This document shows positions 2,252-17,984 of a DNA stretch of 64,000 nt, in pieces. Every line of letters starts with the position of its first letter. Within the stretch, counting starts at the first letter, position 1. The stretch covers positions 757 to 64,756 of the forward strand of contig CAZJGG010000003.1 in assembly GCA_964545475.1 (NCBI GenBank), read 5' to 3'. The position numbers were made by a program, and so were the translations under genes. The notes beneath the pieces were generated by a model. It ran no database searches and was not told the origin of the DNA. It worked only from the letters and a program-made list of their open reading frames with translations. The DNA comes from an uncultured Eubacteriales bacterium. GTDB lineage: Bacteria > Bacillota > Clostridia > Lachnospirales > JAISER01.

Positions 2252-2280
2252 TTGAAAAACCCAAGAAATAAATGTATAAT
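2252..2280 (+). promoter_or_regulatory. Candidate sigma-A promoter for the A2M-like gene
   Basis: TTGAAA, 17 nt, TATAAT, about 35 nt upstream of the AGGAGG SD and ATG 2314. Confidence 0.55.
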
Positions 2281-2313
2281 GTTATTATTCAAACAAATCA
2301 AGGAGGAAATTAC

Positions 2314-5300
2314 ATGAACAAAAAGAACGCATTTGCTGTTGCCGCTGTTGTGTTAGTTATATCTATAGCTTCAGCGGCATTTTATTTTATGGGCGGAGGC
2401 AAACCGGAAGACAATAAAGTAGCGGATAATAACCTGCCAAAAAGCATACAAAATGTTCCGGAAACACCCGAAAATGCTCAATTTAAAATCGCCCCCTCTG
2501 CAATAGGTGATATTGTTATAACTCCGGCGAGTTTTTCGGAGCTTGGTGTTTCAGTGGATTCCTCCTTTTTAATAAAAGCAAAGGCAGAAATTTCCGAAGA
2601 CGAGATTTTAGCAAGGCTTAGTGTAAAATCCGGAGAATCCTTTAAAATAGAAAAATCTAAATCAAAAGAAGCAGACTACTTGCTCTCTTTTAATGAACCT
2701 CTTGAAAAAGAGAAAATATATAATTTCCAATACTTAGAAGAGGGCAAAGCGCCATTGTCTTTTGCTTTTCAAACAGAAAGCGGTCTTAAAATAATATCAT
2801 CAAACATAGCCCAAGATGCATACGCCGTCCCTGTAGAAAGCGGTATAGAGATTACGTTTAATCAAGAACTTGACCGTGAAAGCGTATTTGAGGAAAATTT
2901 TAGAATAAGCCCGGAAGTGACTGGTAAATTCATAAAAGTAGGCAATACATATAGTTTTATTCCCGATAGATTGCAATATAACGCTGAATATAACATAACT
3001 GTGGCAAAAGGCTTAAAAAGCCTTGAAGGAGACGTTTTAGAAGAGGATTACAGCTTGAAATTTCACACAACATGGGAGTACGATGCAAATGGTAATGTAT
3101 TCGCTATTACAGGGGATATGCGCCAGACATATTTGCCAAGTGAAGACGTTGTTTTTGAAATGAGCGTGGGAAAAGAAATAGCGGCAGCAGGCATTGAAAC
3201 AAAGATTTACAGCATAAAAACTAAAGAGGATTACTTAAACTCTATAGACAAGCCTGTTAACGGAGAATTAGAAGAAATTATTGAAACAGAGCTTATAGAA
3301 AGCGTTCAGGAATATTCTACATCTTATTACTTATCTTTAAATAAGCCGCTGGAAGAAGGATATTATTATATTTCCTTAAAAACGGAGGTGGGAGGGCAAA
3401 CATTTGAAGCCCACAAGCTTGTGCAAGTTTCGCCGCTTTCTGTTTATTGCCTCTCTATAGGTGGAGATATGTTAGTTTGGGTTAACGATACAAAAACTGG
3501 TAAACCGGCAGAAGGAGCAAATGTAATTACGGACAGCATTACGGCTGTTACAGACAGCGAAGGCAAAGCAATTTTGCAAACAAAAAAGGATAATAAAAAT
3601 GCTGTAACGGAAATCAGTTACGGAAGTTATAAAACTTTTATTTACAACAACGTTACATATAGCCAGAAAGAATTAAGTATTAACCAAAAGTATTTTTCTT
3701 ATGTTTATACAGACAGAGCCCAGTATAAGCCTAACGACTCAATTGACGTTTTTGGCGTTATAAAAGAAAGATATTCTCAATATAAAATAACAAAAAATGA
3801 TAAAGTAACTGTAAAACTAGGGGACATTAAAGAAATTCCTGTGGAAGTAGACAACTACGGCACTTTTAATGTAAAAATTCCCGTTAGTAATATGAAGGGA
3901 TTCAGTTATATTTATATATATTTAAACGGTGAAAGGTTAACTGAAACATCGGTTAACTTTATTGAATATCAAAAAAGTAAATATATTTTTGATATTAAAC
4001 TAGACAAACCATTATATATGATTGGGGAAGAGATTGGCTTTACAATTAATGCAACAACTTTTGACGGCACTCCAGTTGGGGGTATTGCCATTAACTGCTC
4101 TGAATATCCAGAAGCAAACTGTGTTACAGATGCAAACGGGACAGCAACAGGAAAGCTGACTGTAAAAGGCGGAAGCTGGTGGGATTGGAAGCCTTATTAT
4201 TCAGGGTTATGGTTTTCAACTGTAAGCGATGACGACAACCCCCAAAGCATTTATACATATTTTTATACTATGCCAAGCGATGTAATGCTTGAACATAAAA
4301 AGCTTTCTGATAACTCTATAGAATTTACTTCAAGCGCAATTGATGTGGAAAAAGCAAATAAGTATCTTGAAAAAGATAATAATAATTTTGACGAAGATGT
4401 TTATAGAGGTAAATCAATTGATATGAGCTTTAGCATTAAAGTTACAAAAACTACAAATATGCTTGTTAAAGTCGGGGAACGGTACGACTTTATAAACAAA
4501 GTAAAAGTTCCGTCTTTTAAATATGATAGTAAGCAAGAGGATTACGGAGTTATAGACGTTAAAACAGTTAACGGAAAAGCTGTAATTACTGATTTGCCGT
4601 CAAGCACAGATCCCCTTGTTTCATATTCTTTTGATCTTAATATGACGGACAAAAAGGGTGGAAATATAAGCTATAGATTATATGAATTTGACATTTACAA
4701 ACCTATGTACAGCGGTAAAAAAGAATATGCCCTTAGTTTTACAAAAAAAGATTCAAATAATGTTTATGATTCTTATGCCAAAATGGAACTTAATGAAACT
4801 GTAGATTTGTTTGTTGAAGACAGAAGCGGCGAAGAAAAACAAGTAACAAACGGCAAACTTTTAGTAGTAAATGTACATAACCAACGGGTTTTAAATTCTC
4901 ATACGGGAAGCCCTCAAAAATTGCCGTTTACGTTTACAAAAGATAATATTAATATGTCTGAAATGTTTGGGGCATATTTCGATGGAAAGTATATATACCC
5001 TCTATATCCCCTTTATATTTATTATGGATACGATGAAAGAAAGCTTGATATAGACATTTCTTTTGATAAAGAAAGCTATAAGCCGGGAGAAGAGGTTGCC
5101 GCAAAAATACAAGTTAAAGACAAAGACGGCAAAAACCGAAAAGCATTGGTTAATTTAAGCGTTGTAGACGAAGCAGTGTTTGGCATGATGGATCACGTGC
5201 CAATGTTTTTAGACGGGTTTTACGGAAGCATAAATTCCTATTCGTATGACTACTTTGTTTATGTATCTTATACTCCACAGATTTACGGCTGGGGAGGGGG

Positions 5301-7236
5301 AGCAGAAAAAGGCGGCGGCGGAGACGAATATATGTTAAGGAAAGACTTTGTTGACAATCCTTATTTTATTTCTTCCGAAACCGATGATAACGGCGCTATA
5401 ACAATTAAGTTCAGGTTGCCGGATAATATTACATCATGGAGGACGGCAGTTCACGCAATAACACAGGATAACTATTTAGGAAATACACATTCACATGCAA
5501 TTTCAACCCTTCCTTATAACATAGATGTTGTTATGGCAGACAACTTTGTTGAAGGAGACGATTTTGCGGTTTTAATAAAATCTTTCGGTAATGAGTTTAA
5601 ATTTAACGATACAGAGGTTAAATATGCTGTAGAAATCTTAAATAAAGATAACAGCATTGTTTACAACGGAGAAAAAACCAGTAAGACCTATGCAGACTTT
5701 AATGCCGGAAAACTCCCTAAAGGGGAATATACCGTAAGAGTTTACGGCGAGGCTGGGGAATTTAAAGATGCTATGGAAAAAACCGTTAATGTATCTGATG
5801 TTAACAACATTTTACCAATAAACGCAACAGCATTAATTTCAGATGAAAACCTTAAGCTTCCAGGTTATGACATAATCGGTTCACCAATAAAAATGGAGTT
5901 TTCAAACGGTGAAATAAGTGATTTTATAAACGTATTAAAAGACTGTATGAACTTTACATCAAACAGAACGGATTACACAGCCGCAACTGCTTTCGGGCAA
6001 GACTTTTTAAAAGGAGTACGGTACTATGGCGGAGATGAAAATCCCTATGAAAGCGTTTATTTAAATGCAAAAGGTTCTATAGATGATGTTTACGGTGTTT
6101 CCGAGCTGGTTTACGGAGAAAAAGAGCCGTTATACACAGCAAGGTTTGCCGCAAGCTTCCCGGAAATTGTAAGCTTTGACAGCATTTTGCGATATATAAA
6201 TGAAGAAACACAAATGTATGGAAGTAATGGTTTAGTTCCAAAAGAGTTTACAGAAAGCAGACAGGAAACTCTTCGTGCCGCAGGTTATTTAGCCCACGCC
6301 GCAGGTCAAAAAAGCGTGCTTTTAGAAATTTATAAGCAAATTGAAATAATAGAAAACGATGGAAACCAGCAAAAATTTACTACAGATTATTATGAGAATT
6401 TACGGGTTATGTTTTATGCAGCGGCTTTATGCGCTTTAGGAGACGACGTTATGGCAAGTTCCCTTATGGAAAAATACGGCAGCCCTAAGCTTAATTTAAG
6501 CGACGTAGATGAGAAAGAAGAGGAACTACGTTACGAATATATTAAAACCATGCAGCTTTTTGTTAATACTACTATTGCGCCGGACAAAGCTTTTGATTAT
6601 CTCATAAACAAAAAGCCAAACAAATTTGTAAGTGATGTTTGCGAAAAAATTAATTTTATTAGGAAGGCGTTCCCGGCTGGCGGTGTAAAATCCGAAATAA
6701 GCATTAGCTTAAACGGCAAAACAGAGAGCATTAAGCTTACAAATTTTGAAACCAGGTTTATAGAAATTTCAAAAGAGCAGTACGAAACTCTTAACATTAA
6801 GCAAATAAGCGGAAAAACTCAAACATGGCTTTCTTTTAACGGAAGCCCAGCAAACTTAGACGAAAGCTTAAAACAAATTAAAATAACAAAAAATATTGAA
6901 AAATCCGACTTTTCGGAAAACATGTATAAAGTTACGTTAACAATAGAACCGCCTGGAAATGAAAAGCTTTATAGTTACACAATAAGGGATAGAGTACCTA
7001 GCAATATGCGCTACACAGGGACAAACAGACCTATGTTTGAAGACGGCAGTTATTATTTCATAGACAACACTGAAAAACAGTTTTTAAACATTGATGTCAG
7101 TGATATGCTAAACAGAAGTACTTACGAAGTAACTTATCACTTAATAAAAGTAAACGATTCAGAAGCAGTTGAGGGTCAGGCCTATGTAAGCGGTTATAAC
7201 TTTAAGACGGATAAAATTTGGGGAGCTACCCAATGA
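2314..7236 (+). CDS. Membrane-anchored alpha-2-macroglobulin (MG-domain) family protein with no thioester motif
   Basis: Track ORF 2272..7236. I moved the start to ATG 2314: AGGAGG lies 7 nt upstream and the predicted promoter falls inside the longer ORF. It has an N-terminal TM segment (AFAVAAVVLVISIASAAFYF) and an Ig-like domain. It also carries the signature DNPYFISSETDDNGAITIKFRLPDNITSWR, typical of bacterial A2M/MG domains. No CxEQ motif occurs anywhere in the translation. Confidence 0.75.
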   Translation: MNKKNAFAVAAVVLVISIASAAFYFMGGGKPEDNKVADNNLPKSIQNVPETPENAQFKIAPSAIGDIVITPASFSELGVSVDSSFLIKAKAEISEDEILARLSVKSGESFKIEKSKSKEADYLLSFNEPLEKEKIYNFQYLEEGKAPLSFAFQTESGLKIISSNIAQDAYAVPVESGIEITFNQELDRESVFEENFRISPEVTGKFIKVGNTYSFIPDRLQYNAEYNITVAKGLKSLEGDVLEEDYSLKFHTTWEYDANGNVFAITGDMRQTYLPSEDVVFEMSVGKEIAAAGIETKIYSIKTKEDYLNSIDKPVNGELEEIIETELIESVQEYSTSYYLSLNKPLEEGYYYISLKTEVGGQTFEAHKLVQVSPLSVYCLSIGGDMLVWVNDTKTGKPAEGANVITDSITAVTDSEGKAILQTKKDNKNAVTEISYGSYKTFIYNNVTYSQKELSINQKYFSYVYTDRAQYKPNDSIDVFGVIKERYSQYKITKNDKVTVKLGDIKEIPVEVDNYGTFNVKIPVSNMKGFSYIYIYLNGERLTETSVNFIEYQKSKYIFDIKLDKPLYMIGEEIGFTINATTFDGTPVGGIAINCSEYPEANCVTDANGTATGKLTVKGGSWWDWKPYYSGLWFSTVSDDDNPQSIYTYFYTMPSDVMLEHKKLSDNSIEFTSSAIDVEKANKYLEKDNNNFDEDVYRGKSIDMSFSIKVTKTTNMLVKVGERYDFINKVKVPSFKYDSKQEDYGVIDVKTVNGKAVITDLPSSTDPLVSYSFDLNMTDKKGGNISYRLYEFDIYKPMYSGKKEYALSFTKKDSNNVYDSYAKMELNETVDLFVEDRSGEEKQVTNGKLLVVNVHNQRVLNSHTGSPQKLPFTFTKDNINMSEMFGAYFDGKYIYPLYPLYIYYGYDERKLDIDISFDKESYKPGEEVAAKIQVKDKDGKNRKALVNLSVVDEAVFGMMDHVPMFLDGFYGSINSYSYDYFVYVSYTPQIYGWGGGAEKGGGGDEYMLRKDFVDNPYFISSETDDNGAITIKFRLPDNITSWRTAVHAITQDNYLGNTHSHAISTLPYNIDVVMADNFVEGDDFAVLIKSFGNEFKFNDTEVKYAVEILNKDNSIVYNGEKTSKTYADFNAGKLPKGEYTVRVYGEAGEFKDAMEKTVNVSDVNNILPINATALISDENLKLPGYDIIGSPIKMEFSNGEISDFINVLKDCMNFTSNRTDYTAATAFGQDFLKGVRYYGGDENPYESVYLNAKGSIDDVYGVSELVYGEKEPLYTARFAASFPEIVSFDSILRYINEETQMYGSNGLVPKEFTESRQETLRAAGYLAHAAGQKSVLLEIYKQIEIIENDGNQQKFTTDYYENLRVMFYAAALCALGDDVMASSLMEKYGSPKLNLSDVDEKEEELRYEYIKTMQLFVNTTIAPDKAFDYLINKKPNKFVSDVCEKINFIRKAFPAGGVKSEISISLNGKTESIKLTNFETRFIEISKEQYETLNIKQISGKTQTWLSFNGSPANLDESLKQIKITKNIEKSDFSENMYKVTLTIEPPGNEKLYSYTIRDRVPSNMRYTGTNRPMFEDGSYYFIDNTEKQFLNIDVSDMLNRSTYEVTYHLIKVNDSEAVEGQAYVSGYNFKTDKIWGATQ

Positions 7237-8084
7237 AAGAAATTTTGACTATAGTTTTATGTTTAATAAGTGTTTTTTCAAGAGTTGACAGTACGGAATA
7301 TGCTGTAAACTCTAAAATGCTTAATATTAAAACCATTACTGGGGCAGAATTTAAAAATTCTGTTCAAAATCCAAGGGAGTATTATTTTAGTGAGAAAGTG
7401 TCAGCAGGGGTTGTGCCACACCATACAACTGCGGCGGAGCTAATTTCAGGCTTTTTTGAAGCTTGCTCCGAAAAAGGCGTCTACGACACAATTATTATAA
7501 TTTCTCCTAACCATGAAGGGGACTTAGCAGGGGTTGTTACGTCTCTTTCTGGTTTTAATACAGGAAGTGGTGTTTATTGCGACACAGACATAATAAACGA
7601 AGTTTGCGAAAATTTTGATAATATTACTTTAAATGATGAAAGAATGGAAGCGGAGCATTCCGCTTCCGTTTTAATGCCTTATGTTAATTATTATTTTCCA
7701 AAAGCAAAGGTTGCGCCGTTTTTAGTTAGCAGAACACTTTCCATGGACGAAACTTTAATATTAGCAGAAACCATTGAAAATGCGGCAAAAAACTCTGAAA
7801 AAAAGGTATTATTATTATGTTCTATAGACTTTTCCCATTTTTTATCCCCGGAAAAGGCTGCTTTAAATGATATAAAAACAAAGGAGGCAATCCTTTCAAA
7901 GGATTACCTCCAAATTCATAACTTTTCAAATAATTTTGTAGACAGCCCCGCCTCCCTAATAATTTTTTTACATTACCTTGAAAGCTTAGGGAAAAGCCTT
8001 ATAATTATTGATAACACGGATTCCTCGTATTTTTTACGTCAGCGCATGATTGAAACTACAACATATTTTGTATTAGCCGGCTAA
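7233..8084 (+). CDS. MEMO1 / AmmeMemoRadiSam-B-like (LigB superfamily) protein with an N-terminal signal-like segment
   Basis: Track ORF 7218..8084. ATG 7233 overlaps the upstream stop as ATGA. Motifs GVVPHHTTAAE, SPNHEG, AEHSASVLMPY and SIDFSHF resemble the MEMO family. The hydrophobic N-terminus is KEILTIVLCLISVF. Confidence 0.55.
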   Translation: MKEILTIVLCLISVFSRVDSTEYAVNSKMLNIKTITGAEFKNSVQNPREYYFSEKVSAGVVPHHTTAAELISGFFEACSEKGVYDTIIIISPNHEGDLAGVVTSLSGFNTGSGVYCDTDIINEVCENFDNITLNDERMEAEHSASVLMPYVNYYFPKAKVAPFLVSRTLSMDETLILAETIENAAKNSEKKVLLLCSIDFSHFLSPEKAALNDIKTKEAILSKDYLQIHNFSNNFVDSPASLIIFLHYLESLGKSLIIIDNTDSSYFLRQRMIETTTYFVLAG

Positions 8085-8095
8085 ACGGTTTTGTT

Positions 8096-8515
8096 TTATC
8101 TTTTTGGTTTTTTTAGAATGCCCATGTTTATGCCTATTACACCGCCTAAACCCCCGCCGGAAAGTGAAAGAATCAATAATGTAATTGTGCGGGAATCAAC
8201 TTTAAAGCCTTTGTTTACCCAAATGCCGATTGCAGCAAGGAGTACTGCGTAAATTAAACCGGCAATTATGCCCCATAGCCAGCCTCTGCTTTCGGCATAC
8301 TTAGAGGCATCAAAACCTGCAACAACAACGGATATTAACGTTGTTACCGTTACGACAAGCGGCAAGCTTTGCCCGGTAAACGATGAATATGTAATAAGCA
8401 CGGCATATCCAATTAATACAACGGCCGTTATAGCATACGCCACTAATACACCCGAAATTAGTGAATTTAGCTGGGACGGCTTTTCCTCGGTTACTACATT
8501 TGTTACCTGCTTCAT
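8096..8515 (-). CDS. Small integral membrane protein (about 4 TM; possibly YrzE/TIGR04086-like)
   Basis: 139 aa with four hydrophobic stretches rich in G, A, I, L and V. The family call is tentative. Confidence 0.6.
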   Translation of the reverse strand: MKQVTNVVTEEKPSQLNSLISGVLVAYAITAVVLIGYAVLITYSSFTGQSLPLVVTVTTLISVVVAGFDASKYAESRGWLWGIIAGLIYAVLLAAIGIWVNKGFKVDSRTITLLILSLSGGGLGGVIGINMGILKKPKR

Positions 8516-8587
8516 GTAAGAACCTCCATATTATATTTGCTTACTACTATTTTACTATGAGTAAAAGCAAAATATGAATGTTCTGTA

Positions 8588-9031
8588 CTATAAAATATGC
8601 AGTACGCTGTCGCCCTCAGTGTTAATAGTTTTAAGCAAGCTCAACGCTTCTGCCTGATATTCGGTAATTTCATGAAGCTTATTAACAATGGAAGTATAAT
8701 CTGCATTTGAAATCATAATTTTAAAATCTTTATTAGCGTGTATTTTTTCAAGTGCTATAGACAGCTTTGCGCCTTGATTATGAGAAAGGGTAATAAATTT
8801 AGCAAAATATTCAATTTGTTTTTCAGAAAGGCTTTTTTTAATATGCTTCATAAAATCAAGCCTTGCCTGAATTTTTGTATTAATTTTTTCCCTTTCATTA
8901 AGCTCTTTTGTAATTTTTTTTGTATTTTCGCTTAAGTTTTTCATCATTTTATCAATACTTGCCTCTTTGTTTTTAGTCGGCTTATTAATGATCTTGTTAC
9001 TATCAGATTCATAGCTTAATAATGCAGACAT
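8588..9031 (-). CDS. Hypothetical helical/coiled-coil protein
   Basis: 147-aa ORF, Lys/Glu-rich, with a GGGGG SD-like run 6 nt upstream of the ATG. I recognise no family. Confidence 0.5.
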   Translation of the reverse strand: MSALLSYESDSNKIINKPTKNKEASIDKMMKNLSENTKKITKELNEREKINTKIQARLDFMKHIKKSLSEKQIEYFAKFITLSHNQGAKLSIALEKIHANKDFKIMISNADYTSIVNKLHEITEYQAEALSLLKTINTEGDSVLHIL

Positions 9032-9267
9032 CGAAAGCCCCCGTTTTCTAAAGCTGTTCCATGTTTTACCAGGAAAGCTCTAATTGTTTTTTGCTATATT
9101 TTATTATACGACTTTTTTGTAAAAAAGTCTCAACCACGCACCTATGCATGTTAATACTAAGGCGTAGTTGTCGGAAAGCAGTGCGGACAAAATGTCCGCA
9201 CGCCGTCATGACAATATTTATGTTTCACTGTCATCCCGATTATAACACATCGCAATCAAGAAAAATG

Positions 9268-9444
9268 TCAAATCCTGCCACCGGAAAGCATCATCATCAT
9301 AAGCATCATCATCATGGAATTATCGCCTCCGCCTCCGCCGCCACACATTCCCGGGTTCATCATCATCATCATTAAAAGCATCATCATCATATCGTTGCCA
9401 GGCGCTTGAGGAGGGCAGCCAATACCCATACCCATGTTATTCAT
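9268..9444 (-). CDS. Unannotated small ORF encoding a methionine-rich peptide (58 aa)
   Basis: Hand translation gives MNNMGMGIGCPPQAPGNDMMMMLLMMMMMNPGMCGGGGGGDNSMMMMLMMMMLSGGRI followed by a stop. GGGAGG (9453-9458) lies 8 nt upstream of ATG 9444. It has the same orientation as its neighbours and falls below the 60-aa track cutoff. Confidence 0.5.
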   Translation of the reverse strand: MNNMGMGIGCPPQAPGNDMMMMLLMMMMMNPGMCGGGGGGDNSMMMMLMMMMLSGGRI

Positions 9445-9492
9445 AATTACAACCTCCCATAAAATATTAAAAAATACTAATTCTGAAGGTGA

Positions 9493-9533
9493 CCTCTAAA
9501 AACCTGCTTTGTTTGGATTTTCGAGGTTGCCTG
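9493..9533. repeat. Short hairpin resembling the termini of the palindromic repeat family (possible remnant)
   Basis: CCTCTAAAAACC...GGATTTTCGAGGTTGCCT. Compare the ends of copy A: CTCTAAAAACC (32238) and TTTTTAGAGGTTGCCT (32391-32406). Confidence 0.35.
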
Positions 9534-9558
9534 TATACAGAACCAGCCTTTTAATATT

Positions 9559-10818
9559 TTATGACATGGCATTTAAATGTTGCTTGTCTTTGTTTAAATA
9601 CTTGTAAATAATCCACGCATAGGCATAAACAGCGGAAACAAGGCTGTCCATGCTTATATGCTCGTTTTCTTGATGGGAAGAGTAAATTTCCCCAGGCCCA
9701 AAAATAACTGTAGTAATTTTGCCATATGCCTCTAAAAGCCCTGCATCGCTCCAAGAGGGATAATAATTATAGCGGGGTTTTTCGTTAAGCATATCTGTAA
9801 TGCCAAGGCAGACGGATTTTATAATGTCGCTGTCAAGGTTTGCGTTTAAAGGCTTGCGTTTTAAGCCGTTTTTAAGTTTTTTATGTAATTTATAGCTTAT
9901 TTTTACTTTTGGCTCTGATTCCAAAAAGGCCTCTATTATTGAATTAAGCTCTTCTAAAACCTCTTCTTCGCTTTCATCAGGTAAATATCGCCTTTCAAGA
10001 GTAATTACGCATTCCCCGGCAACAGTTGAAGAAAGACCGCCGCCGGAAATTCTGCTTATATTAAACGAACCCTTGCCAATAAGCGGATGTGTGGCATAGG
10101 CTATGCTCTCTTCAAGGCATTTCTCCATATATACAATAAATTTGGAAGCGGTGGAAATAGCGTTTATACCGTTTTCAGAAATTGCGCTATGAGTGGGAGA
10201 GCCTTCAATTTTAATATCAACAACAACAAGCCCACGCTGGGTTACACAAATATCAAAACCTGTAGGTTCTGCCACAATTGCGGCATCAATGTTTTTATTG
10301 TGTTCCAACAAATATGTAGTTCCTAAACTTCTATCTTTTTTGTCTATAACAGCGGAAAACAAAACATCTCCTGCAAGGTAAAGATTCATTTCTTTTACGG
10401 CAATTATGGCGCAAATCATTGTCGCAAGCTGGCCTTTCATATCTGTTGCGCCACGGCCGTATATATAGTCGTTATCTATAACAGGTTTTAGAGCACGGTT
10501 TGTGTCGCTTGGGGGCGCAGTATCCATATGCCCTGTTAAAAGCAATGTTTTTCCGCCGGTTTTCCCTTTTAGCCTGGCTGTAACGTTACATCTTCCGTCT
10601 TTAACTTCATGAAGCTCTGCAACTATGCCGTATTCCTCAAATAAAGACTTTATAAAAAGAGCACATTCTCTTTCCTGTTTTATAATCCCGGGATAGCTTG
10701 GTATTGCAATTAAATCTTTTACTATATCAAAAACAAGCGCTAATGGAATTGCTTTGTTTATTTTATTTCTGAAAATGGTTGGGGTTTGTTTCCACCTTAT
10801 GCTAACTTTATTTTCCAT
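9559..10818 (-). CDS. M20-family metallopeptidase (ArgE/DapE-like deacylase)
   Basis: 419 aa. Contains LLLTGHMDTAPP, GRGATDMKG and VAEPTG, which are M20 metal-site motifs. Confidence 0.8.
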   Translation of the reverse strand: MENKVSIRWKQTPTIFRNKINKAIPLALVFDIVKDLIAIPSYPGIIKQERECALFIKSLFEEYGIVAELHEVKDGRCNVTARLKGKTGGKTLLLTGHMDTAPPSDTNRALKPVIDNDYIYGRGATDMKGQLATMICAIIAVKEMNLYLAGDVLFSAVIDKKDRSLGTTYLLEHNKNIDAAIVAEPTGFDICVTQRGLVVVDIKIEGSPTHSAISENGINAISTASKFIVYMEKCLEESIAYATHPLIGKGSFNISRISGGGLSSTVAGECVITLERRYLPDESEEEVLEELNSIIEAFLESEPKVKISYKLHKKLKNGLKRKPLNANLDSDIIKSVCLGITDMLNEKPRYNYYPSWSDAGLLEAYGKITTVIFGPGEIYSSHQENEHISMDSLVSAVYAYAWIIYKYLNKDKQHLNAMS

Positions 10819-10962
10819 AAATATACCTCAAAATCTATCGTTATTAACAATTCAAAAACTATTATAATTTGAAAATTGCTTCGTATTACATTATAACAAC
10901 AGGCTATGTACAATTCAAATAAAAAATAGTATTATTAAAATAAAACTCTAAAGGAGTAATAT

Positions 10963-11628
10963 ATGATACAAATATGTGAGGACTGGTCATCAAGGCTGTC
11001 AGAAGAATTTAATAAGGAATATTATTTAAAATTAAGAGAATTTCTTAAAAATGAATATAAAACAAGGCCCATATATCCCCCGGCAGAGGAGATTTATTCG
11101 GCTTTAAGGCTAACATCTTTTGAAAATACAAAGGTTGTTATTTTAGGACAAGACCCTTACATAAATAAAGGCGAAGCCCATGGTCTTGCGTTTTCTGTTA
11201 ATAAAGATATAAAAATACCTCCGTCCCTTAAAAACATATATAAAGAAATTGAACAAGACATTGGCTGTAAAAAACCTGACCACGGCTGCTTAACAGACTG
11301 GGCAAAACAAGGGGTTTTGCTTTTAAACACAACACTTACAGTTAGGGCAGGGCTTTCAAGGTCTCATTACGGGCAGGGCTGGGAGGTTTTTACAGACAAG
11401 GTAATAGAACTGTTAAATGAAAAAACAACCCCCATAGTTTTTATGCTTTGGGGGAAAAACGCACAAAACAAAGGGCATTTAATAACAAATGATAAGCACT
11501 TGGTTTTAACCGCCGCCCACCCAAGCCCTCTTGCAGGAGGGCGCTTTAATGGATGCAAGCATTTTTCAAAAGCAAACGCTTTTTTGGCGGAAAACGGAAT
11601 TCAACCCATTGAATGGCAAATATACTAA
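10963..11628 (+). CDS. ung: Uracil-DNA glycosylase (family 1)
   Basis: 221 aa. Contains VVILGQDPY, HGLAFSV and HPSPL motifs. AAAGGAG SD is present. Confidence 0.92.
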   Translation: MIQICEDWSSRLSEEFNKEYYLKLREFLKNEYKTRPIYPPAEEIYSALRLTSFENTKVVILGQDPYINKGEAHGLAFSVNKDIKIPPSLKNIYKEIEQDIGCKKPDHGCLTDWAKQGVLLLNTTLTVRAGLSRSHYGQGWEVFTDKVIELLNEKTTPIVFMLWGKNAQNKGHLITNDKHLVLTAAHPSPLAGGRFNGCKHFSKANAFLAENGIQPIEWQIY

Positions 11629-11630
11629 AA

Positions 11631-14600
11631 TTACATAAGTGTTAACTGCCTTGTTTCCGGTATTCCTTTAAAAACACCGTTTTTCTTTAAAAGTTCAATA
11701 ACGGTTTTATTTGTTTTAGTTCTTTCACGGAAATCTTCTATAGTGATAAATTCTCCGTCTTTTCTAGCTTCAACAATGTTTTGGGCAACACTGTCTCCAA
11801 GCCCGGAAATGGAGGATAAAGGCGGCATAAGTCCGTTGGGGGTTACGGTAAATTTTGTGGCTTGGGCTTCGTAAAGGTTTAATTCCGTAAACTTAAAGCC
11901 ACGTGTATACATTTCGTAAACAAGCTCCAAAACGGTGTAGGAAGCTTTGTCTTTAGCGGATGCTTCGTCTCCAAGAGAGCTAATCCGCCTCATTTCCAGC
12001 CGCAAAGTATCTATGCCGTGGCACATTGTTTCATAATTAAAATCTGAAACCTTAACGGAAAAAGTTGCGGCGTAAAAGCTGTAGGGGTGATATATTTTAT
12101 AATACCCAATTCTTACTGTCATCATAACGTAAGCAACGGCGTGACCTTTTGGGAACATATATTTAATTTTTTTGCAGGAATCAATGTACCATTCGTCAAC
12201 GTTTGCATTTCTCATAATTTCTTCCTGCTCCGCTGTAAGCCCTTTGCCTTTTCTAACAGATTCCATTATTTTAAAGGAATCTTTACGTGGAGCTCCTTTG
12301 TTTATTAAGTAAACCATAATATCGTCACGAGTTGGTATAATTTCTTTAAGAGTTGCAATGCCTTCCTTTACAAGCTCTTGGGCATTATTAATCCAAACGT
12401 CCGTTCCGTGGGAAAGCCCTGAAATACGTACAAGTTCCGCAAAAGTTGTGGGCTTAGTTTCCATTAGCATTCCTCTAACAAAGTGTGTGCCGAATTCTGG
12501 AAGCCCCAAAGTTCCTGTTTGGCAGTTTATTTCATTTAAGTTAACTCCCAAAGCTTCCGGGGACTGGAACAGAGAAATAATCCTTTTATCCCCTAAATCA
12601 ATGGTTTGTGGGTCTACGCCGGAAGTATCGTGAAGCATACGCACAATTGTTGGAACGTCGTGACCCAAAAGGTCAAGCTTTAACAGACGCCCCTCAATGG
12701 AGTGATAGTCAAAGTGTGTTGTTGTTATATTAGACGACGTATCGTTTGCCGGGCGTTGAACAGGGCAAAATTCATAAATGGAATGCCCTTTTGGTAAAAT
12801 AACAAGACCACCGGGGTGTTGCCCTGTTGTTTTTTTAATGCCAGAACAGCCGATTTTAAGCCTGTTTATTTCTGCCTGCCGTAAATTAAGCCCTTTTTCC
12901 TCTAAAAATTTCCGAACATAACCATAAGCCGTTTTTTCCGCAAGGGTGCTTATAGTGCCGGCTTTAAACACGTTTTCAGATCCAAAAAGAGATTCGGCGT
13001 ATTGATGGGCCTTAAGCTGATATTCCCCGGAAAAGTTAAGGTCAATATCTGGCTCTTTGTCGGCATCAAAGCCTAAAAAGGTTTCAAAAGGAATGTCGTG
13101 ACCGTCTTTGTGGAGAGGTTCACCGCAGTTTGGGCAGTTTTTGTCCGGCATATCGCAGCCGGAAGCCCCTGCAAACTGTTTAACAATATCCGAATCAAAA
13201 TCGGAATATTTACAGCTTTTGCAAACGTAGTGGGGGGAAAGAGGGTTAACCTCTGTAATTCCAGATAACGTGGCAACAAGGGACGAACCAACAGAGCCTC
13301 TTGAACCTACTAAATACCCGTCCTCCATTGATTTGGAAACAAGCTTTTGCGCCGCTATATACATAACGGAGAACCCGTTTTTAATAATAGAATCAAGCTC
13401 TCTATGAAGCCTTGCAGCAACAATTTCCGGCAAATTTTCGCTGTATACTGCTCTTGCTCTTTCCATTGTAAGCCGTTCAATTTCCTCTTTACAGCCGTCA
13501 ATATGGGGAGGGAACTTTCCGCTTGGAATAGGGGAGTAGTCTTCAAACATATCCGCTATTAAATTTGTATTTGTAACTACAACTTCTTTGGCAAGCGCTT
13601 CTCCTAAATATTCAAACTCTTTAAGCATTTCCTCTGTTGTGCGGTAATATAGAGGAGCTTGCAGGTGTGCATCGTTAAAGCCCTCTCCTGTCATAAGGAT
13701 TTGACGGAAAATAGCATCCTCCGGGTTTAAAAAGTGAACGTCGCATGTTGCAATAGCCAGCTTGTTATGGGCTTTTGCAAGATCTACAATCCGTTTGTTT
13801 ATGTTAATTAAATCCTGCATAGAGGAAACCTGACCGTCTCGTACTAAATACATGCAGTTAGGAATCGGCTGAATTTCATAATAATCATAAAAAGAAGCTA
13901 TGGAATTTATATATTGCTCTGGCTTGTTCTCTTTTATAGCTGTATAAAGCTCCCCGGCATCACACGCAGAGCCTAATATTAAACCCTCTTTAAGCCGAGA
14001 AAGCTCGCTTTTAGGTATTCTCGGGCGTTTAAAGAAATATTTTAAATGGGAAAGAGAAACAAGCTCGTAAAGGTGGTGTAGCCCTGTTAAATTTTTTGCA
14101 AAAATAATAGCGTGTTTGTGTTTAAGCTTGGATTTATCCATTTCGTTTGAAGCAATGGCGTTTATTTCCTCAATGTGGTTTACGCCTTTTTCTTGTAAAA
14201 TAGGCAAGCATTTAATAAATATTTCGGCTGTTGCCGCCGCATCGTCTACTGCTCTATGGTGGTTTAAAAGGGATACGCCTAAATGCCTTGCAACAACATC
14301 TAGCTTATGCTTATTAAGCCCCGGAAATAAAAGTCTGGAAAGCTCTAAGGTGTCCAAAACGGTGTTTGTTATGTAAATATTTTGGCGTTTTGCCGCATTT
14401 GTAACAAAGCCAACATCAAAAGAGGCGTTGTGAGCAACAAAAACACCGTCGCCAACAAAGCTTAAAAATTGAGGTAAAACATCAGTTATTGCAGGGGCGT
14501 TTTCCACCATTGCATTGGTTATGCCGGTTAAATCTGTAATTTTATCAGGTATGCGCCTTTTTGGGTTAACAAAAGTGCTGAACTTATCTGTTATAACTCC

Positions 14601-15950
14601 ATTTTCTAGCTTTACAGCCCCAATTTCAATAATTTCATCGGAGTTTTTTGAAAGCCCTGTTGTTTCAATGTCAAAAACAATAAAAGTGCTGTTAAGGGTT
14701 TGTCCTTTTGGGCTTTCAACAACAGAAGCTAAATCGTCAATAACATAGGCTTCAACGCCGTAGAGCACTTTAACGCCGTATTTTGCGGAAGCCGCCATAG
14801 CTTCAGGGTATGCCTGGGTAACGCCGTGGTCTGTAAGAGCAATTGCTCTATGCCCCCATGCCGCCGCACGCTCTAAATAATCGGAAATGGTGTTCATTCC
14901 ATCCATTGCGCTCATGTTTGTGTGCAAATGCAGTTCCACTCTTTTTTGCTCTGCATTATCCTGTCTTTTTAAAGATTTTTCCATTAGCGCAATTTCATTT
15001 GCCATTATGTTAAGTTCTTTTGAATATTCATCAAATTGAACTTTGCCTTTTACTTTTAAATATTTACCATTTTTAAGAATTGGTTTAAATTCATTAAATT
15101 TATCTGCTTTTGAAAAGAATTTTATTGTTATTGAGTCTGTGCCGTCTGTTATATCTGCTGTAACAAGTATGTTTCCGCTTTTTGTTTCCCTTGTCTCGCT
15201 GGAAATCACTTCACCGTTTACAATAATTTCAGAATCCTTTTCAAGTTTGTCGGAAAGCAAGACGCATTCGCCGTCAATGCTTTCAACAAGCTTTGTCTCT
15301 TTTCTTCCGCCACCTTTGCCAGAAAACTGCTTAAAGCCATCTTTTGGAGCAGGCTTAGGCGCTGGTTTTTGTATTTTAATGGGTAGGGCAGGTTCTTTTG
15401 GTATATCGTATGTAATATGTTCTTTTCTTTCCGTCTTTTTCTTTTTTTCACCGGGTTTGTATATAAAATCCACGTTTAGGCTTATTCCAAGGCGTTTTTC
15501 AATAAGTCCGCTTATAAGCTGGGGTATTCTTTTTCTAATAAATAAAAACTCATAGTTATAATTAATAGTAATTATAAGTTTGCTATTTTCTACAACCCAT
15601 TCAGAGGAGTTTAAAATTTTAGCGCACATATGGCTGGTATTGCTAACTTCGTGCAAAATGCTTTTCCAAATTAGGGATATAAGCTTTTTAGTGTCGCTTT
15701 CGCCAAAGTCGTAGCGCAAATGCACAGAAATATGCTCCATTTCGGGAAAGCTTTCTTTCATTTGGTTTTCAAGCTCCGTTAAATGTTTCTCGTCTAAAAC
15801 CTTGTTATGGCTTAAAAATAAGTCCATTGCTTTTTTTCCGGTACTTATTTTAAGGCTTGAAATTTCCGTCTGTTTAAAGCTGTCTTTTATATCATCAGTT
15901 AAATTGATTTTTTCAAAAACTTCGCAAAACTTTTTTAATTGTGCAGGCAT
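11631..15950 (-). CDS. polC: DNA polymerase III alpha subunit, PolC type
   Basis: 1439 aa. The PHP domain is interrupted by a DEDD exonuclease (FVVFDIETTGL...HNASFD...HRAVDDA), followed by the polymerase core. This architecture is unique to Firmicute PolC. Confidence 0.97.
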   Translation of the reverse strand: MPAQLKKFCEVFEKINLTDDIKDSFKQTEISSLKISTGKKAMDLFLSHNKVLDEKHLTELENQMKESFPEMEHISVHLRYDFGESDTKKLISLIWKSILHEVSNTSHMCAKILNSSEWVVENSKLIITINYNYEFLFIRKRIPQLISGLIEKRLGISLNVDFIYKPGEKKKKTERKEHITYDIPKEPALPIKIQKPAPKPAPKDGFKQFSGKGGGRKETKLVESIDGECVLLSDKLEKDSEIIVNGEVISSETRETKSGNILVTADITDGTDSITIKFFSKADKFNEFKPILKNGKYLKVKGKVQFDEYSKELNIMANEIALMEKSLKRQDNAEQKRVELHLHTNMSAMDGMNTISDYLERAAAWGHRAIALTDHGVTQAYPEAMAASAKYGVKVLYGVEAYVIDDLASVVESPKGQTLNSTFIVFDIETTGLSKNSDEIIEIGAVKLENGVITDKFSTFVNPKRRIPDKITDLTGITNAMVENAPAITDVLPQFLSFVGDGVFVAHNASFDVGFVTNAAKRQNIYITNTVLDTLELSRLLFPGLNKHKLDVVARHLGVSLLNHHRAVDDAAATAEIFIKCLPILQEKGVNHIEEINAIASNEMDKSKLKHKHAIIFAKNLTGLHHLYELVSLSHLKYFFKRPRIPKSELSRLKEGLILGSACDAGELYTAIKENKPEQYINSIASFYDYYEIQPIPNCMYLVRDGQVSSMQDLININKRIVDLAKAHNKLAIATCDVHFLNPEDAIFRQILMTGEGFNDAHLQAPLYYRTTEEMLKEFEYLGEALAKEVVVTNTNLIADMFEDYSPIPSGKFPPHIDGCKEEIERLTMERARAVYSENLPEIVAARLHRELDSIIKNGFSVMYIAAQKLVSKSMEDGYLVGSRGSVGSSLVATLSGITEVNPLSPHYVCKSCKYSDFDSDIVKQFAGASGCDMPDKNCPNCGEPLHKDGHDIPFETFLGFDADKEPDIDLNFSGEYQLKAHQYAESLFGSENVFKAGTISTLAEKTAYGYVRKFLEEKGLNLRQAEINRLKIGCSGIKKTTGQHPGGLVILPKGHSIYEFCPVQRPANDTSSNITTTHFDYHSIEGRLLKLDLLGHDVPTIVRMLHDTSGVDPQTIDLGDKRIISLFQSPEALGVNLNEINCQTGTLGLPEFGTHFVRGMLMETKPTTFAELVRISGLSHGTDVWINNAQELVKEGIATLKEIIPTRDDIMVYLINKGAPRKDSFKIMESVRKGKGLTAEQEEIMRNANVDEWYIDSCKKIKYMFPKGHAVAYVMMTVRIGYYKIYHPYSFYAATFSVKVSDFNYETMCHGIDTLRLEMRRISSLGDEASAKDKASYTVLELVYEMYTRGFKFTELNLYEAQATKFTVTPNGLMPPLSSISGLGDSVAQNIVEARKDGEFITIEDFRERTKTNKTVIELLKKNGVFKGIPETRQLTLM

Positions 15951-15965
15951 TAAATCATACTTTCT

Positions 15966-17021
15966 TTAGAATTTTATTATTTCTTCCATAAGCCTGTCAA
16001 GCATCTCGCTTTCAGATACTTTAGCAATTATTTCACCTTTTCTAAATATAAGACCACAGCCTTTGCCGCCGGCTATGCCAATGTCCGCTTCTTTGCCCTC
16101 GCCAACGCCGTTTACAACACAACCCATAATGGCTACGGTAATATCTTTATCAATACCTTTGCATTTTTCCTCCACCTTTGTTGCAAGCTTTATTAAGTCA
16201 ATTTCCGTCCGCCCACATGTTGGGCATGATATAAATTCTATTCCAAACTTTCTTAAATTAAGGGCTTTTAATATTTCTTTGGCACAACTTATTTCTTCAA
16301 CTGGGTTAGCTGTAAGAGAAACTCTTATAGTATCTCCTATTCCTTGGGCAAGAATCGCCCCAAGCCCTACGGAAGATTTTATTGCTCCCGAATAAGCTGT
16401 TCCGGCTTCTGTTATGCCTAAATGGAGGGGATAGTTTGTTTTTTCTGCAATGTTTAAATAACTTTCAATGCAAAAAGGAACGTTTGAAGCCTTTAACGAA
16501 ATAACAATTTCGTAAAAATCAAGCTCTTCTAAAATAGCAACGTGTCTAAGGGCACTTTCTACAATTCCTTGTGATGTAACGCCTTTGTATTTTTCAACTA
16601 AATCCTTTTCAAGAGAGCCGGAATTTACCCCGATTCTTATTGGAACATTTTTTTCTTTAGCAAGCTTTACAACTTCTTGAACTTTCCATTTTTCACCGAT
16701 ATTTCCGGGGTTTAAGCGCAGCTTGTCCGCTCCGTTTTTAATTGCTTCAATTGCAAGTTTGTAATCAAAATGAATGTCTGCCACAAGGGGTATATTTATG
16801 TCCTTTTTAATTTCCGTAATGGCTTCGGCACTTGCCTTGTCTTTACAGGAAACACGTACAATTTCGCAGCCCTCGTTTTCCAAAGCTTTAATTTGGGAAA
16901 CTGTAGCAGATATGTTTGCAGTATCTGTATTTGTCATGGATTGTATAAGAATGGGGTTTGTCCCACCAATTTTTTTATTGCCAATAATAATTTCTTTTGT
17001 AATTTTTCTGTTTTTCAGCAT
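15966..17021 (-). CDS. ispG: 4-hydroxy-3-methylbut-2-enyl diphosphate synthase (IspG/GcpE)
   Basis: 351 aa. Shows typical IspG TIM-barrel and 4Fe-4S domain motifs (VRVSC, CPTCGR, GCVVNGVGE). Confidence 0.93.
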   Translation of the reverse strand: MLKNRKITKEIIIGNKKIGGTNPILIQSMTNTDTANISATVSQIKALENEGCEIVRVSCKDKASAEAITEIKKDINIPLVADIHFDYKLAIEAIKNGADKLRLNPGNIGEKWKVQEVVKLAKEKNVPIRIGVNSGSLEKDLVEKYKGVTSQGIVESALRHVAILEELDFYEIVISLKASNVPFCIESYLNIAEKTNYPLHLGITEAGTAYSGAIKSSVGLGAILAQGIGDTIRVSLTANPVEEISCAKEILKALNLRKFGIEFISCPTCGRTEIDLIKLATKVEEKCKGIDKDITVAIMGCVVNGVGEGKEADIGIAGGKGCGLIFRKGEIIAKVSESEMLDRLMEEIIKF

Positions 17022-17093
17022 AAAAATCCCCTTTATTTGGAAAAATATATATGAGATTTAATAAACACGTCCTTTTAAGGAGGCAAGGCTTTA

Positions 17094-17984
17094 ATGAAAC
17101 ACTTTTACGGAACGAATAAAAAATCTACTTATTTTGAGGGCTGGTACTTTAAACAGCACAACCATGAAAATATGCTTGCGCTTATTCCCGGCATAAGTAT
17201 AAACGGAGATGGCTCTAAAAAGGCTTTTATACAGTTTATCACAAATACTGGTTCTTTTCAAATAAATTTCCCCTATGAAGACTTTCATGCGGAAACAAAA
17301 AGATTGTTTGTCAGAGTAGACAAATCGTATTTTTCTCCTGAGGGCATTTATTTGGATATTCAAAGACCAAACTTAGAAATACACGGTCAGTTAAACTTTA
17401 AAAATATAACGCCGCTAAAATACAGTGCTATGGGTGTTTTTTCTATGTTTAAGTTTATGGAATGTAACCATGATGTTTTAAGCCTTAACCATGAAGTTGA
17501 CGGCGTTGTTAACATAAACGGAAAAAACCTCGATTTTTCAAACTCTAGAGGTTATATAGAAAAGGACTATGGCAAAAGTTTCCCTAAGAAATACATTTGG
17601 CTTCAATGCAACGGCTTTGAAGAGAAAAACGTTTCCATAATGGTGTCCGTTGCTACAATTCCTTTTATGGCTACTGAATTTACTGGGTTAATAAGTATAG
17701 TTTATTATAGAGGTAAACAATATAGAATTGCAACTTATAACGGTGGCGCTCCTATTGTTGTAAACAATAACAAAATGATTGTTAAAAATAATAACTATAT
17801 GTTAAGGGTGAACTGGCCGGAAAACATTGCTTATGGCTTGTCCGCCCCGGTTAAAGGCGAAATGTCCAGAACAATTAATGAATGCCCGATAGGAGAAGCT
17901 AAGTTTACATTTTATAAGAAAAACAAAGAAATATTTACATTATCAAGCGATAAAGCAAGTATTGAAACTGTTGACTTTTTTTAG
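17094..17984 (+). CDS. Tocopherol-cyclase-like family protein
   Basis: 296 aa. The N-terminal STYFEGWYFKQ matches the hallmark FEGWYFK motif of tocopherol cyclase (VTE1-type) proteins. AAGGAGG SD is present. Confidence 0.55.
   Translation: MKHFYGTNKKSTYFEGWYFKQHNHENMLALIPGISINGDGSKKAFIQFITNTGSFQINFPYEDFHAETKRLFVRVDKSYFSPEGIYLDIQRPNLEIHGQLNFKNITPLKYSAMGVFSMFKFMECNHDVLSLNHEVDGVVNINGKNLDFSNSRGYIEKDYGKSFPKKYIWLQCNGFEEKNVSIMVSVATIPFMATEFTGLISIVYYRGKQYRIATYNGGAPIVVNNNKMIVKNNNYMLRVNWPENIAYGLSAPVKGEMSRTINECPIGEAKFTFYKKNKEIFTLSSDKASIETVDFF

Follow-up and report, generated by a model that had tools for sequence, protein, structure and literature searches.

Bacterial alpha-2-macroglobulins (A2Ms) have been described in two genomic types, both in the periplasm of Gram-negative bacteria (PMC5764988). 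In type I, a thioester-bearing A2M is encoded with the penicillin-binding protein PBP1c, which a 'trap plus repair' hypothesis casts as the repair arm of the system (PMC5764988). Type II is the six-gene operon of MagD/YfaS. MagD lacks the thioester, traps the protease non-covalently after its bait has been cleaved, and needs its operon partners for stability (PMC5764988). Here, we describe a locus of an uncultured Eubacteriales bacterium, in a 64-kb stretch of genomic DNA that is referred to below as the window (GCA_964545475.1, contig CAZJGG010000003.1, positions 757 to 64,756). The locus consists of a gene for a large A2M-like protein, followed directly by a gene for a small protein of the Memo family, as had been proposed by a first-pass annotation that was made from the sequence without database searches. 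In our view, it represents a third type of bacterial A2M system, in genomic context as well as in architecture, next to the pbpC-linked and the MagD/YfaS types.

An A2M-superfamily protein and its Memo-family partner

All Pfam matches of the large protein were above the curated cut-offs (Table 1). They comprise the Ig-like domain noticed in the first-pass annotation, which is a Big_5 domain, followed by MG2, the bait-region domain A2M_BRD and an A2M (MG7) domain. The motif RLPDNITSWR, from which the annotation had recognised a bacterial A2M, occupies residues 1034-1043, inside the A2M domain. A structure model of residues 441-1640, made from an alignment of 27 homologues (mean pLDDT 78.5), contained in this order a chain of beta-sandwich domains, a disordered loop, the beta domain with PDNITSW, a domain of 12 helices and C-terminal beta domains. 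The Pfam TED model had no match in the protein, although the 12-helix domain is present in the structure model. When the model was compared with the PDB using Foldseek, proteins of the A2M superfamily from bacteria and eukaryotes came first, and the alignments spanned 1200-1530 columns. The best match was E. coli ECAM (5a42, E 4e-43, ~1390 aligned columns), and others were Salmonella A2M (4u48), trypsin-activated ECAM (4ziq), CD109, TEP1, A2ML1 and C3/C4/C5. The TM-scores of these matches were low (0.2-0.4), which we attribute to differing domain orientations in multidomain, conformationally mobile proteins. Single-sequence phmmer searches of the PDB with either protein of the pair gave no match, and only profile and fold searches reached known structures. 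No NCBIfam model matched the large protein, and the PADLOC defence models matched neither protein. By both sequence and fold, the membership of the large protein in the A2M superfamily is secure.

The disordered loop of the model is located directly ahead of a conserved R-x-x-F motif, at the place of a bait. In the family alignment, the sequence of this loop varies over a short stretch and then enters the conserved motif [A/G]-E-K-G-G-G-G.

Next, we focused on the thioester. A motif scan found no C-x-E-Q motif throughout the large protein, which contains six cysteines in total. The region following the PDNITSW motif was compared with thioester-bearing relatives that carry YPYGC[V/I]EQT, and the alignment puts this motif on FTSNRTDY, at the end of the segment LKDCMNFTSNRTDY (residues 1208-1221). 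This means that the first-pass annotation had placed the expected thioester region correctly, and its claim that the thioester is lost holds for the window protein as well as for its close family. The family consensus at the former thioester site is G-x-R-x-D, where both the cysteine and the glutamine have been lost and a conserved Arg/Asp pair is found instead. C1211 was considered as a displaced thioester cysteine and rejected, as this residue precedes the aligned site and lacks conservation in the family. Among 29 family proteins from the homology search, one contained a CxEQ motif anywhere (CLEQ at residue 1413 of P0040). It lies ~390 residues past the PDNLTSW of that protein, whereas the aligned site in the window protein lies ~180 residues past PDNITSW. 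None of the close family members has CxEQ at the thioester position. The canonical motif YPYGC[V/I]EQTTSR is kept in three Memo-linked A2Ms, which derive from the metagenome-assembled genomes (MAGs) of one Bdellovibrionales and two Candidate Phyla Radiation (CPR) bacteria. The association with Memo is thus not restricted to A2Ms without a thioester.

The large protein has a single hydrophobic segment, near its N-terminus (about residues 4-29 by hydropathy). The first-pass annotation had called this a transmembrane (TM) anchor, but it may be a cleavable signal peptide instead. Homologues have either a TM segment or a lipobox/lipoprotein signal at the same place, and several are lipoproteins. 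As the window protein contains an A-S-A motif at residues 20-22, its N-terminus may be either a signal anchor or a cleavable signal peptide.

The small protein matches the Pfam family Memo (PF01875; E 2.9e-16, 59.9 bits against a cut-off of 27) and TIGR04336, AmmeMemoRadiSam system protein B (91.1 bits against a cut-off of 26). Its structure model has a pLDDT of 93.5 and a pTM of 0.88, with low confidence only at residues 1-30. Human MEMO1 was the best Foldseek match of this model (7m8h, 7kq8, 7l5c, 3bcz; E ~1e-12, TM 0.69), followed by the archaeal Memo-like protein TK2203 and then by LigB-type extradiol dioxygenases. The identity of the 283-residue protein as a Memo-family member, suspected in the first-pass annotation from its motifs, is secure. 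The hydrophobic, signal-like N-terminus that had been noted for it (MKEILTIVLCLISVF) was confirmed as well. Most homologues carry a lipobox signal (L-x-G-C) at this position, and the partner is predicted to be exported.

In an alignment of 34 Memo relatives, H63, H94, D199 and H202 were invariant, and H142 and D237 were nearly so. In a profile alignment to MEMO1, H94 corresponds to the histidine of the 'GPSH' motif, and D199/H202 fall on 'SDFCH'. We take H49, H81, D189, H192 and C244 to be the metal and active-site residues of MEMO1, the first four of which would be equivalent to H63, H94, D199 and H202. D237, which is part of a 'DSP' motif, aligns with the cysteine of the 'CG.G' motif in canonical Memos, presumably the metal ligand C244 of MEMO1. 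The D237 column contains Asp in 32 of the 34 sequences, and Cys only in two canonical outgroup Memos. Homology thus predicts that the partner has exchanged its cysteine ligand for a carboxylate, resulting in a 2-His-1-carboxylate-type metal site. We considered a role as an oxygen-dependent dioxygenase for it and judged this unlikely, since most of the carriers, going by their taxon names, live as strict anaerobes.

Relatives of the large protein have been named 'Ig-like domain-containing protein' by automatic annotation, and those of the partner 'AmmeMemoRadiSam system protein B' or, once, 'poly-gamma-glutamate synthesis protein'. These names are probably misleading and hide the relationship in both sets of homologues. 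No AMMECR1 or radical SAM gene adjoins the pair in the window, and none is recurrent in related loci. As these neighbours are missing, the N-termini are signal or lipoprotein N-termini and Cys is replaced by Asp, the name AmmeMemoRadiSam system protein B is probably an over-annotation for this Memo subfamily.

Conservation of the pair and optional parts in relatives

The two genes are found together in taxonomically distant genomes. On metagenome contigs, Memo relatives of ~50% identity are encoded directly 3' of a Big_5/A2M protein of 1650-1700 residues, in several cases with overlapping stop and start codons, while the genes that flank the pair are unrelated between contigs. At 25-29% identity of the A2M, the Memo gene is still immediately downstream, and the gene order A2M-like then Memo was found in well over 100 independent contigs. 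To quantify this, an alignment of Memo relatives was used as query against one genome per species. This yielded at least 447 relatives, and the best 80 loci were screened with an A2M-family profile. An A2M-family open reading frame (ORF) was found upstream on the same strand in 65 of the 80 (65/78 informative loci), and most of these ORFs end at the Memo start. In L021 and L023, ~1.6 kb of other genes separate the two. Two of the 15 loci without an A2M lack upstream sequence, and in 11 of the other 13 the Memo is fused to a PGA_cap domain.

The converse scan used an A2M alignment as query against metagenome contigs and yielded at least 565 relatives. Among the best 80 of these, a Memo gene was directly downstream in 38 under a strict distance rule and in ~6 more that were missed by this rule, giving ~44 of 67 informative loci; 13 loci end too early and ~23 have no Memo. 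In 95 non-redundant pairs, the commonest spacing was a 4-nt overlap (30 pairs) and 52 pairs showed some overlap, although choosing the start nearest to the stop biases these spacings towards short values. The conserved pairing is secure and not due to chance. The large protein is an A2M, the small one a Memo and their pairing recurs in other genomes, and these were the three points on which the first-pass proposal depended. A fermentation-metagenome contig (L107) contains a tandem arrangement of one A2M (~8001-11312), a Memo (11812-12705) and a second A2M (12804-17681).

When 1.84 billion cluster representatives were searched exhaustively, 1257 clusters (50% identity) matched the window Memo protein at E<=1e-10. 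The closest relatives were found in metagenomes from termite gut and fermentation, with the labels Clostridiales or Oscillospiraceae. Among the named carriers are Oscillospiraceae, Syntrophomonadaceae, Peptococcaceae, Defluviitaleaceae, Tissierellales, Vallitalea, Brassicibacter and Dethiosulfatibacter, with Brassicibacter mesophilus DSM 24659, Dethiosulfatibacter aminovorans DSM 17477 and Vallitalea maricola as carriers that can be cultured. Many carriers are Patescibacteria (Magasanik-, Peregrini-, Falkow- and Saccharibacteria), and a few are MAGs labelled Gammaproteobacteria or Bdellovibrionales. Co-occurrence in Firmicutes, which the first-pass annotation had suggested checking, is indeed conserved in Clostridia, but the pair is not confined to Firmicutes, as it is also common in Patescibacteria/CPR.

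Across 170 related loci, the only recurrent neighbours were Memo, an extracytoplasmic function (ECF) sigma factor and PGA_cap. When ORFs within 4 kb of the pair were clustered in 90 loci, only the ECF sigma factor was recurrent besides lineage-specific synteny; the linkage to PGA_cap surfaced only on a specific search. Of the 59 loci with a full-length A2M gene, 16 have an ECF sigma gene immediately upstream of it on the same strand, and the two genes often overlap. The A2M-like proteins of precisely these loci carry 40-125 cytoplasmic residues ahead of the TM segment, whereas most others have fewer than ~35. P0058 contains a zf-HC2 anti-sigma domain (2.6e-9) and its gene overlaps with that of an ECF sigma factor, without a Memo neighbour. 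Apart from this zf-HC2 domain, no Pfam anti-sigma domain was found in the sigma-linked N-termini. This architecture suggests that the sigma-linked relatives are anti-sigma factors whose ectodomain is of the A2M type.

The Pfam family PGA_cap is that of CapA, a protein of poly-gamma-glutamate capsule synthesis. In 21 screened loci, 10 of which have an A2M upstream, the C-terminus of Memo is fused to this domain, and in several more PGA_cap has a gene of its own directly behind Memo; altogether, Memo is fused to or directly before PGA_cap in ~30 loci. Near ~10 of the Memo/PGA_cap loci, and mostly upstream, we observed a conserved membrane protein of ~610 residues (cluster median; e.g., L045:4610-6595) that has no Pfam match.

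In two members, P0062 and P0063, the bait loop is the exact insertion site of a Hint/PT-HINT domain (PF07591). The insert starts with Cys after '...AERGG' and ends with '...VHN', after which the sequence continues with 'DKGGG' (P0062) or 'QEKGGG' (P0063). As the residue after VHN is Asp or Gln rather than Cys, Ser or Thr, the sequence would favour self-cleavage over splicing. Both genes are followed by a Memo::PGA_cap fusion, and that of P0062 is preceded by an ECF sigma gene.

One A2M-like relative from Acetivibrio alkalicellulosi (P0064, L010:6001-11178) has a cleavable signal peptide and no Memo neighbour. It carries a C-terminal dockerin, which suggests that it is cellulosome-associated. 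A transglutaminase-core gene is found downstream of it on the other strand.

Organisation of the locus in the window

The ORF of the A2M-like gene spans 2272..7236 on the + strand, within which the ATG at 2314 is the credible start. The promoter-like site lies 34 nt upstream of this ATG, and its -10 box spans the alternative ATG at 2272. A start at 2272 was rejected because it lies within this predicted -10 box and has no ribosome-binding site. At the other end of the gene, the overlap of stop and start codons that the first-pass annotation had reported was found again, now with a Shine-Dalgarno sequence for the Memo gene. From these signals, the locus is predicted to be a bicistronic operon complete in itself, in which the A2M-like and the Memo-like gene stand between a promoter and a weak terminator, with one transcript and coupled translation.

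Table 1. Features of the A2M-like/Memo locus in the window, and coordinates of related loci (L numbers).
Feature	Position	Strand	Basis or remark
Sigma-70-type promoter-like site, TTGAAA-17-TATAAT, 11/12 matches	2252..2280	+	Best such site in region
Shine-Dalgarno sequence of A2M-like gene, AAGGAGG	2300..2306	+	Direct reading of sequence
A2M-like gene, 1640 aa, without thioester	2314..7236	+	ORF list, Pfam, motif scan, model, Foldseek
N-terminal hydrophobic segment, about residues 6-28	2329..2397	+	Hydropathy; homologues
Big_5 bacterial Ig-like domain, residues 157-252	2782..3069	+	Pfam, E 1.4e-11
MG2 domain match, residues 463-508	3700..3837	+	Pfam, 33.2 bits, cut-off 32.8
A2M bait-region domain (A2M_BRD), residues 825-958	4786..5187	+	Pfam, E 2.7e-8
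Disordered Gly-rich bait-like loop, residues 975-1006, ...GWGGGAEKGGGGDEYML...	5236..5331	+	pLDDT <50 at model residues 535-566
A2M (MG7) domain with RLPDNITSWR, residues 1022-1086	5377..5571	+	Pfam, motif scan
TED-like helical domain, 12 helices, residues 1199-1452	5908..6669	+	Model residues 759-1012; Foldseek alignments
Dead thioester site, FTSNRTDY in place of YPYGCxEQT	5953..5976	+	Alignment with thioester-bearing relatives
C-terminal beta-sandwich domains, MG8/receptor-binding-domain-like, residues 1459-1640	6688..7233	+	Model
Shine-Dalgarno sequence of Memo gene, GGGGAG, within 3' end of A2M-like gene	7220..7225	+	8-13 nt ahead of start
ATGA stop/start overlap of A2M-like and Memo genes	7233..7236	+	Sequence
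Memo-family gene with export signal, 283 aa	7233..8084	+	Pfam, NCBIfam, model, Foldseek
Signal-like N-terminus of Memo protein, MKEILTIVLCLISVFSR	7233..7283	+	Hydropathy; homologues
Memo domain, residues 61-253	7413..7991	+	Conserved H63, H94, H142, D199, H202; D237 in place of Memo Cys ligand
Weak terminator-like hairpin and T-run, operon end	8075..8100	+	At Memo stop
DUF3792 small multi-pass membrane protein, convergent with Memo gene	8096-8515	-	Pfam, 1.1e-23
Memo-linked A2Ms with thioester	L025:4732-9813, L039:2641-7362, L066:1-5388		Motif
Sigma-linked loci	L006, L008, L035, L042, L047, L055-L057, L069, L071, L074, L078, L079, L086; L171 (P0058)		
Memo/PGA_cap examples	L058:9728-11617, L013:5179-7299, L047:10673-11797, L039:8308-9345		
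Hint-bearing A2Ms	P0062 = L173:5001-10622; P0063 = L174:426-5765		

The window contains one A2M-like gene and one Memo gene. The A2M-like gene has rimP/nusA upstream, and downstream of it come Memo and then DUF3792; the position of DUF3792 next to the pair is not conserved in other loci. Neither pbpC (PBP1c) nor any of the partner genes yfaT/yfaA/yfaP/yfaQ (magA, B, C, E, F) adjoins the A2M-like gene. No ECF sigma factor was detected anywhere in the window, and PGA_cap is likewise absent from it. The window thus carries the minimal form of the module. In an Rfam search of the whole window, only two tRNAs were found, far from the locus.

Three further elements were observed around the pair. The leader ahead of the divergent rimP-nusA-ylxR operon contains a hairpin with a perfect 13-bp stem, GATAAGAGTGGGT GCGA ACCCACTCTTATC (2156-2185, - strand). 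It resembles a terminator, except that its T-run is weak, and might serve as a leader attenuator. Another hairpin with a 13-bp stem, followed by TTTGTTTTT, is found within the coding sequence of Memo, on the opposite strand (7883-7911, - strand). As it lies ~185 nt past the stop of the convergent DUF3792 gene, it could be the terminator of that gene. Finally, an ORF of 104 residues with histidine runs (HHHHKHHHH...HHHHH; 9061-9375, + strand) is found in the gap between two minus-strand genes, where there is no Rfam match; it is probably not a real gene.

Possible functions and comparison with known systems

Our tentative interpretation, in which our confidence falls a little short of even, is that the pair forms a thioester-independent protease trap of the cell envelope with a Memo-like enzymatic partner, as the first-pass annotation had also surmised. 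The A2M-like protein would be located on the outer face of the cytoplasmic membrane, in a cell without an outer membrane, and would act like MagD. Cutting of its exposed loop would cause a conformational change by which the attacking endopeptidase is caged or neutralised non-covalently, and in the sigma-linked relatives the same cleavage would also signal inward. The Memo-like metalloprotein, supplied in a fixed ratio through translational coupling, would be its extracytoplasmic partner. Its task would be either to help the A2M-like protein mature or remain stable, or to repair or modify the envelope. A repair role would parallel that of PBP1c in type I, and would be shared with the CapA-like domain in relatives. 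The sigma-linked relatives and the insertion of Hint in the bait loop suggest that loop cleavage may be the key event, and that it may be coupled to transcription in some lineages.

Several observations weigh against such a trap. The bait-like loop is short and ends in a conserved motif, unlike the long hypervariable bait of broad-spectrum traps, which points to a specific partner, protease or processing event rather than to pan-protease trapping. As about one third of the A2M-like family members have no adjoining Memo (in the converse scan, and also P0058 and P0064), the Memo protein is not strictly required for the A2M-like protein. Conversely, the enzymes can work without the A2M-like protein, as Memo::PGA_cap fusions occur without any A2M in many Patescibacteria/CPR genomes. 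The window copy also has a short cytoplasmic N-terminus of only a few residues and there is no ECF sigma in the window, so it cannot signal in the way of the sigma-linked relatives.

These observations lead to an envelope-polymer processing complex as the main rival explanation, which we consider doubtful. Here, the A2M-like protein would be a surface scaffold or substrate-binding platform, where the TED-like alpha/alpha toroid and the Ig/MG domains bind a polymer of the wall, capsule or S-layer, and the Memo-like and, in relatives, CapA-like metallophosphoesterase-fold domains would serve as catalytic subunits in its assembly, trimming or attachment. The recurrent fusion or adjacency of Memo and PGA_cap, including the fusions without A2M in CPR, agrees with this explanation, as do the conservation rather than variability of the loop motif and the loss of the thioester in favour of an R/D pair; the predicted 2-His-1-carboxylate-type site of the partner would suggest real catalysis. 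However, the full A2M domain set has been kept, with bait-region domain, disordered loop and MG7 motif, which would be needless for a mere scaffold, and the YPYGC[V/I]EQTTSR of the three Memo-linked relatives is a device for protease trapping or covalent tagging. Clustering of neighbours revealed no recurrent glycosyltransferase, ligase or transporter genes, and the window itself has no PGA_cap. Improbable as an account of the pair, but relevant for part of the family, is a surface sensor, in which the A2M-like ectodomain is mainly a signalling receptor, and cleavage of its loop or binding of a ligand is reported to the other side of the membrane. For the relatives, the relay would run through a fused anti-sigma domain to the ECF sigma factor, with Memo as output of the regulon or as co-sensor. 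The sigma gene lies directly upstream in 16/59 loci, its presence correlates perfectly with the 40-125-residue cytoplasmic extension, P0058 combines zf-HC2 with an overlapping ECF sigma gene, and P0062 unites sigma, bait-loop Hint and Memo::PGA_cap. The sigma gene is nevertheless missing from three quarters of the loci, most sigma-linked N-termini have no Pfam anti-sigma match, and the window protein lacks both the cytoplasmic extension and a sigma gene within 64 kb. A sensor can thus describe a subset of the relatives, but not the mechanism of the window copy. That the pair is simply an ordinary Ig-like adhesin next to an unrelated, canonical AmmeMemoRadiSam B would agree with the database names of the relatives and with the TIGR04336 score above its cut-off. 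This is very improbable: the adjacency has been kept across phyla with overlapping stop and start codons, AMMECR1 and radical SAM genes are missing as described above, the partner is predicted to be exported and has Asp for Cys, and the large protein matches full-length A2M structures instead of adhesins.

A broader interpretation would combine the protease trap with signalling: the family would be an immune module of the envelope, serving to 'sense, trap and repair' in bacteria that lack an outer membrane, namely Clostridia and CPR. We regard this as unlikely. The trigger would be the cutting of the Gly-rich bait loop by an incoming endopeptidase or wall hydrolase or, in some members, self-cleavage by the inserted Hint domain. 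In sigma-linked members, cleavage would free the ECF sigma factor, which would make the A2M-like protein a new protease-sensing anti-sigma factor, while envelope repair or modification would fall to the exported Memo-like enzyme, alone or together with the CapA-like one. If true, this would be the first concrete extracytoplasmic biochemical role for a Memo-family protein. The protease-sensing anti-sigma factor that the sigma-linked and Hint-bearing relatives suggest is a testable concept in itself.

What Memo proteins do biochemically is, to our knowledge, still a matter of debate, and no function has been assigned to the bacterial AmmeMemoRadiSam system. An exported Memo subfamily with a putative 2-His-1-carboxylate-type site and a fixed protein partner may provide a tractable bacterial system for this question. 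In a literature search, we came across no report that connects A2M to Memo or AmmeMemoRadiSam, an A2M domain to an anti-sigma factor, or a Memo-like protein to CapA, although full-text coverage was incomplete and a prior description is possible. As far as this search showed, the third arrangement is widespread and unstudied, with its own replacement of the thioester site and a dedicated Memo partner. With it, envelope defence or sensing of the A2M type would reach into bacteria that have no outer membrane, among them CPR bacteria, whose surface biology is largely unknown.

The known systems resemble the locus in different respects. Compared with canonical members of PF01875 and TIGR04336, the partner has the fold (TM 0.69 to 7m8h, 7kq8 and 3bcz) and scores above the curated cut-offs, whereas its subfamily is predicted to be exported, has Asp in 'DSP' where they have Cys in 'CG.G', and is associated with A2M-like proteins, PGA_cap and ECF sigma factors instead of AMMECR1 or radical SAM proteins. 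Like anti-sigma factors of the zf-HC2 type, the A2M-like protein occupies the anti-sigma position beside an ECF sigma gene in about a quarter of the related loci. Unlike them, the window copy has neither a sigma gene nor a cytoplasmic domain, only the short N-terminus.

With the type II systems (MagD of Pseudomonas aeruginosa, YfaS of E. coli), the window protein shares the A2M domain set with a bait region, the absence of CxEQ, the predicted location at the outer face of the cytoplasmic membrane and dedicated partner proteins that are encoded alongside. However, its partner belongs to the Memo family and there are no magABCDEF/yfaSTAPQ genes. The window family is anchored by its own TM segment, signal peptide or lipobox, whereas MagD is anchored via MagB. 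The N-terminal Big_5 domain sets the window protein apart, as does the dead site G-x-R-x-D, which is peculiar to its family, and the family is found in Clostridia and CPR instead of Gram-negative periplasms. With type I (ECAM/YfhM, Salmonella A2M), it shares the best fold matches (5a42, 4u48, 4ziq), a membrane tether and the order of an A2M gene followed by one enzyme gene, as in E. coli yfhM-pbpC; three relatives (L025, L039, L066) even carry the thioester. Here, the differences are that the window protein and its close family have no thioester, that the partner is Memo-like and not a penicillin-binding protein, and that the bait loop, with its conserved Gly-rich motif, is short. Against the family profile, E. 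coli YfaS scored 155 bits and YfhM 102 bits, compared with 1581 bits for the window protein, so the family is distant from both. We classify the third A2M type as specific to monoderm and CPR bacteria.

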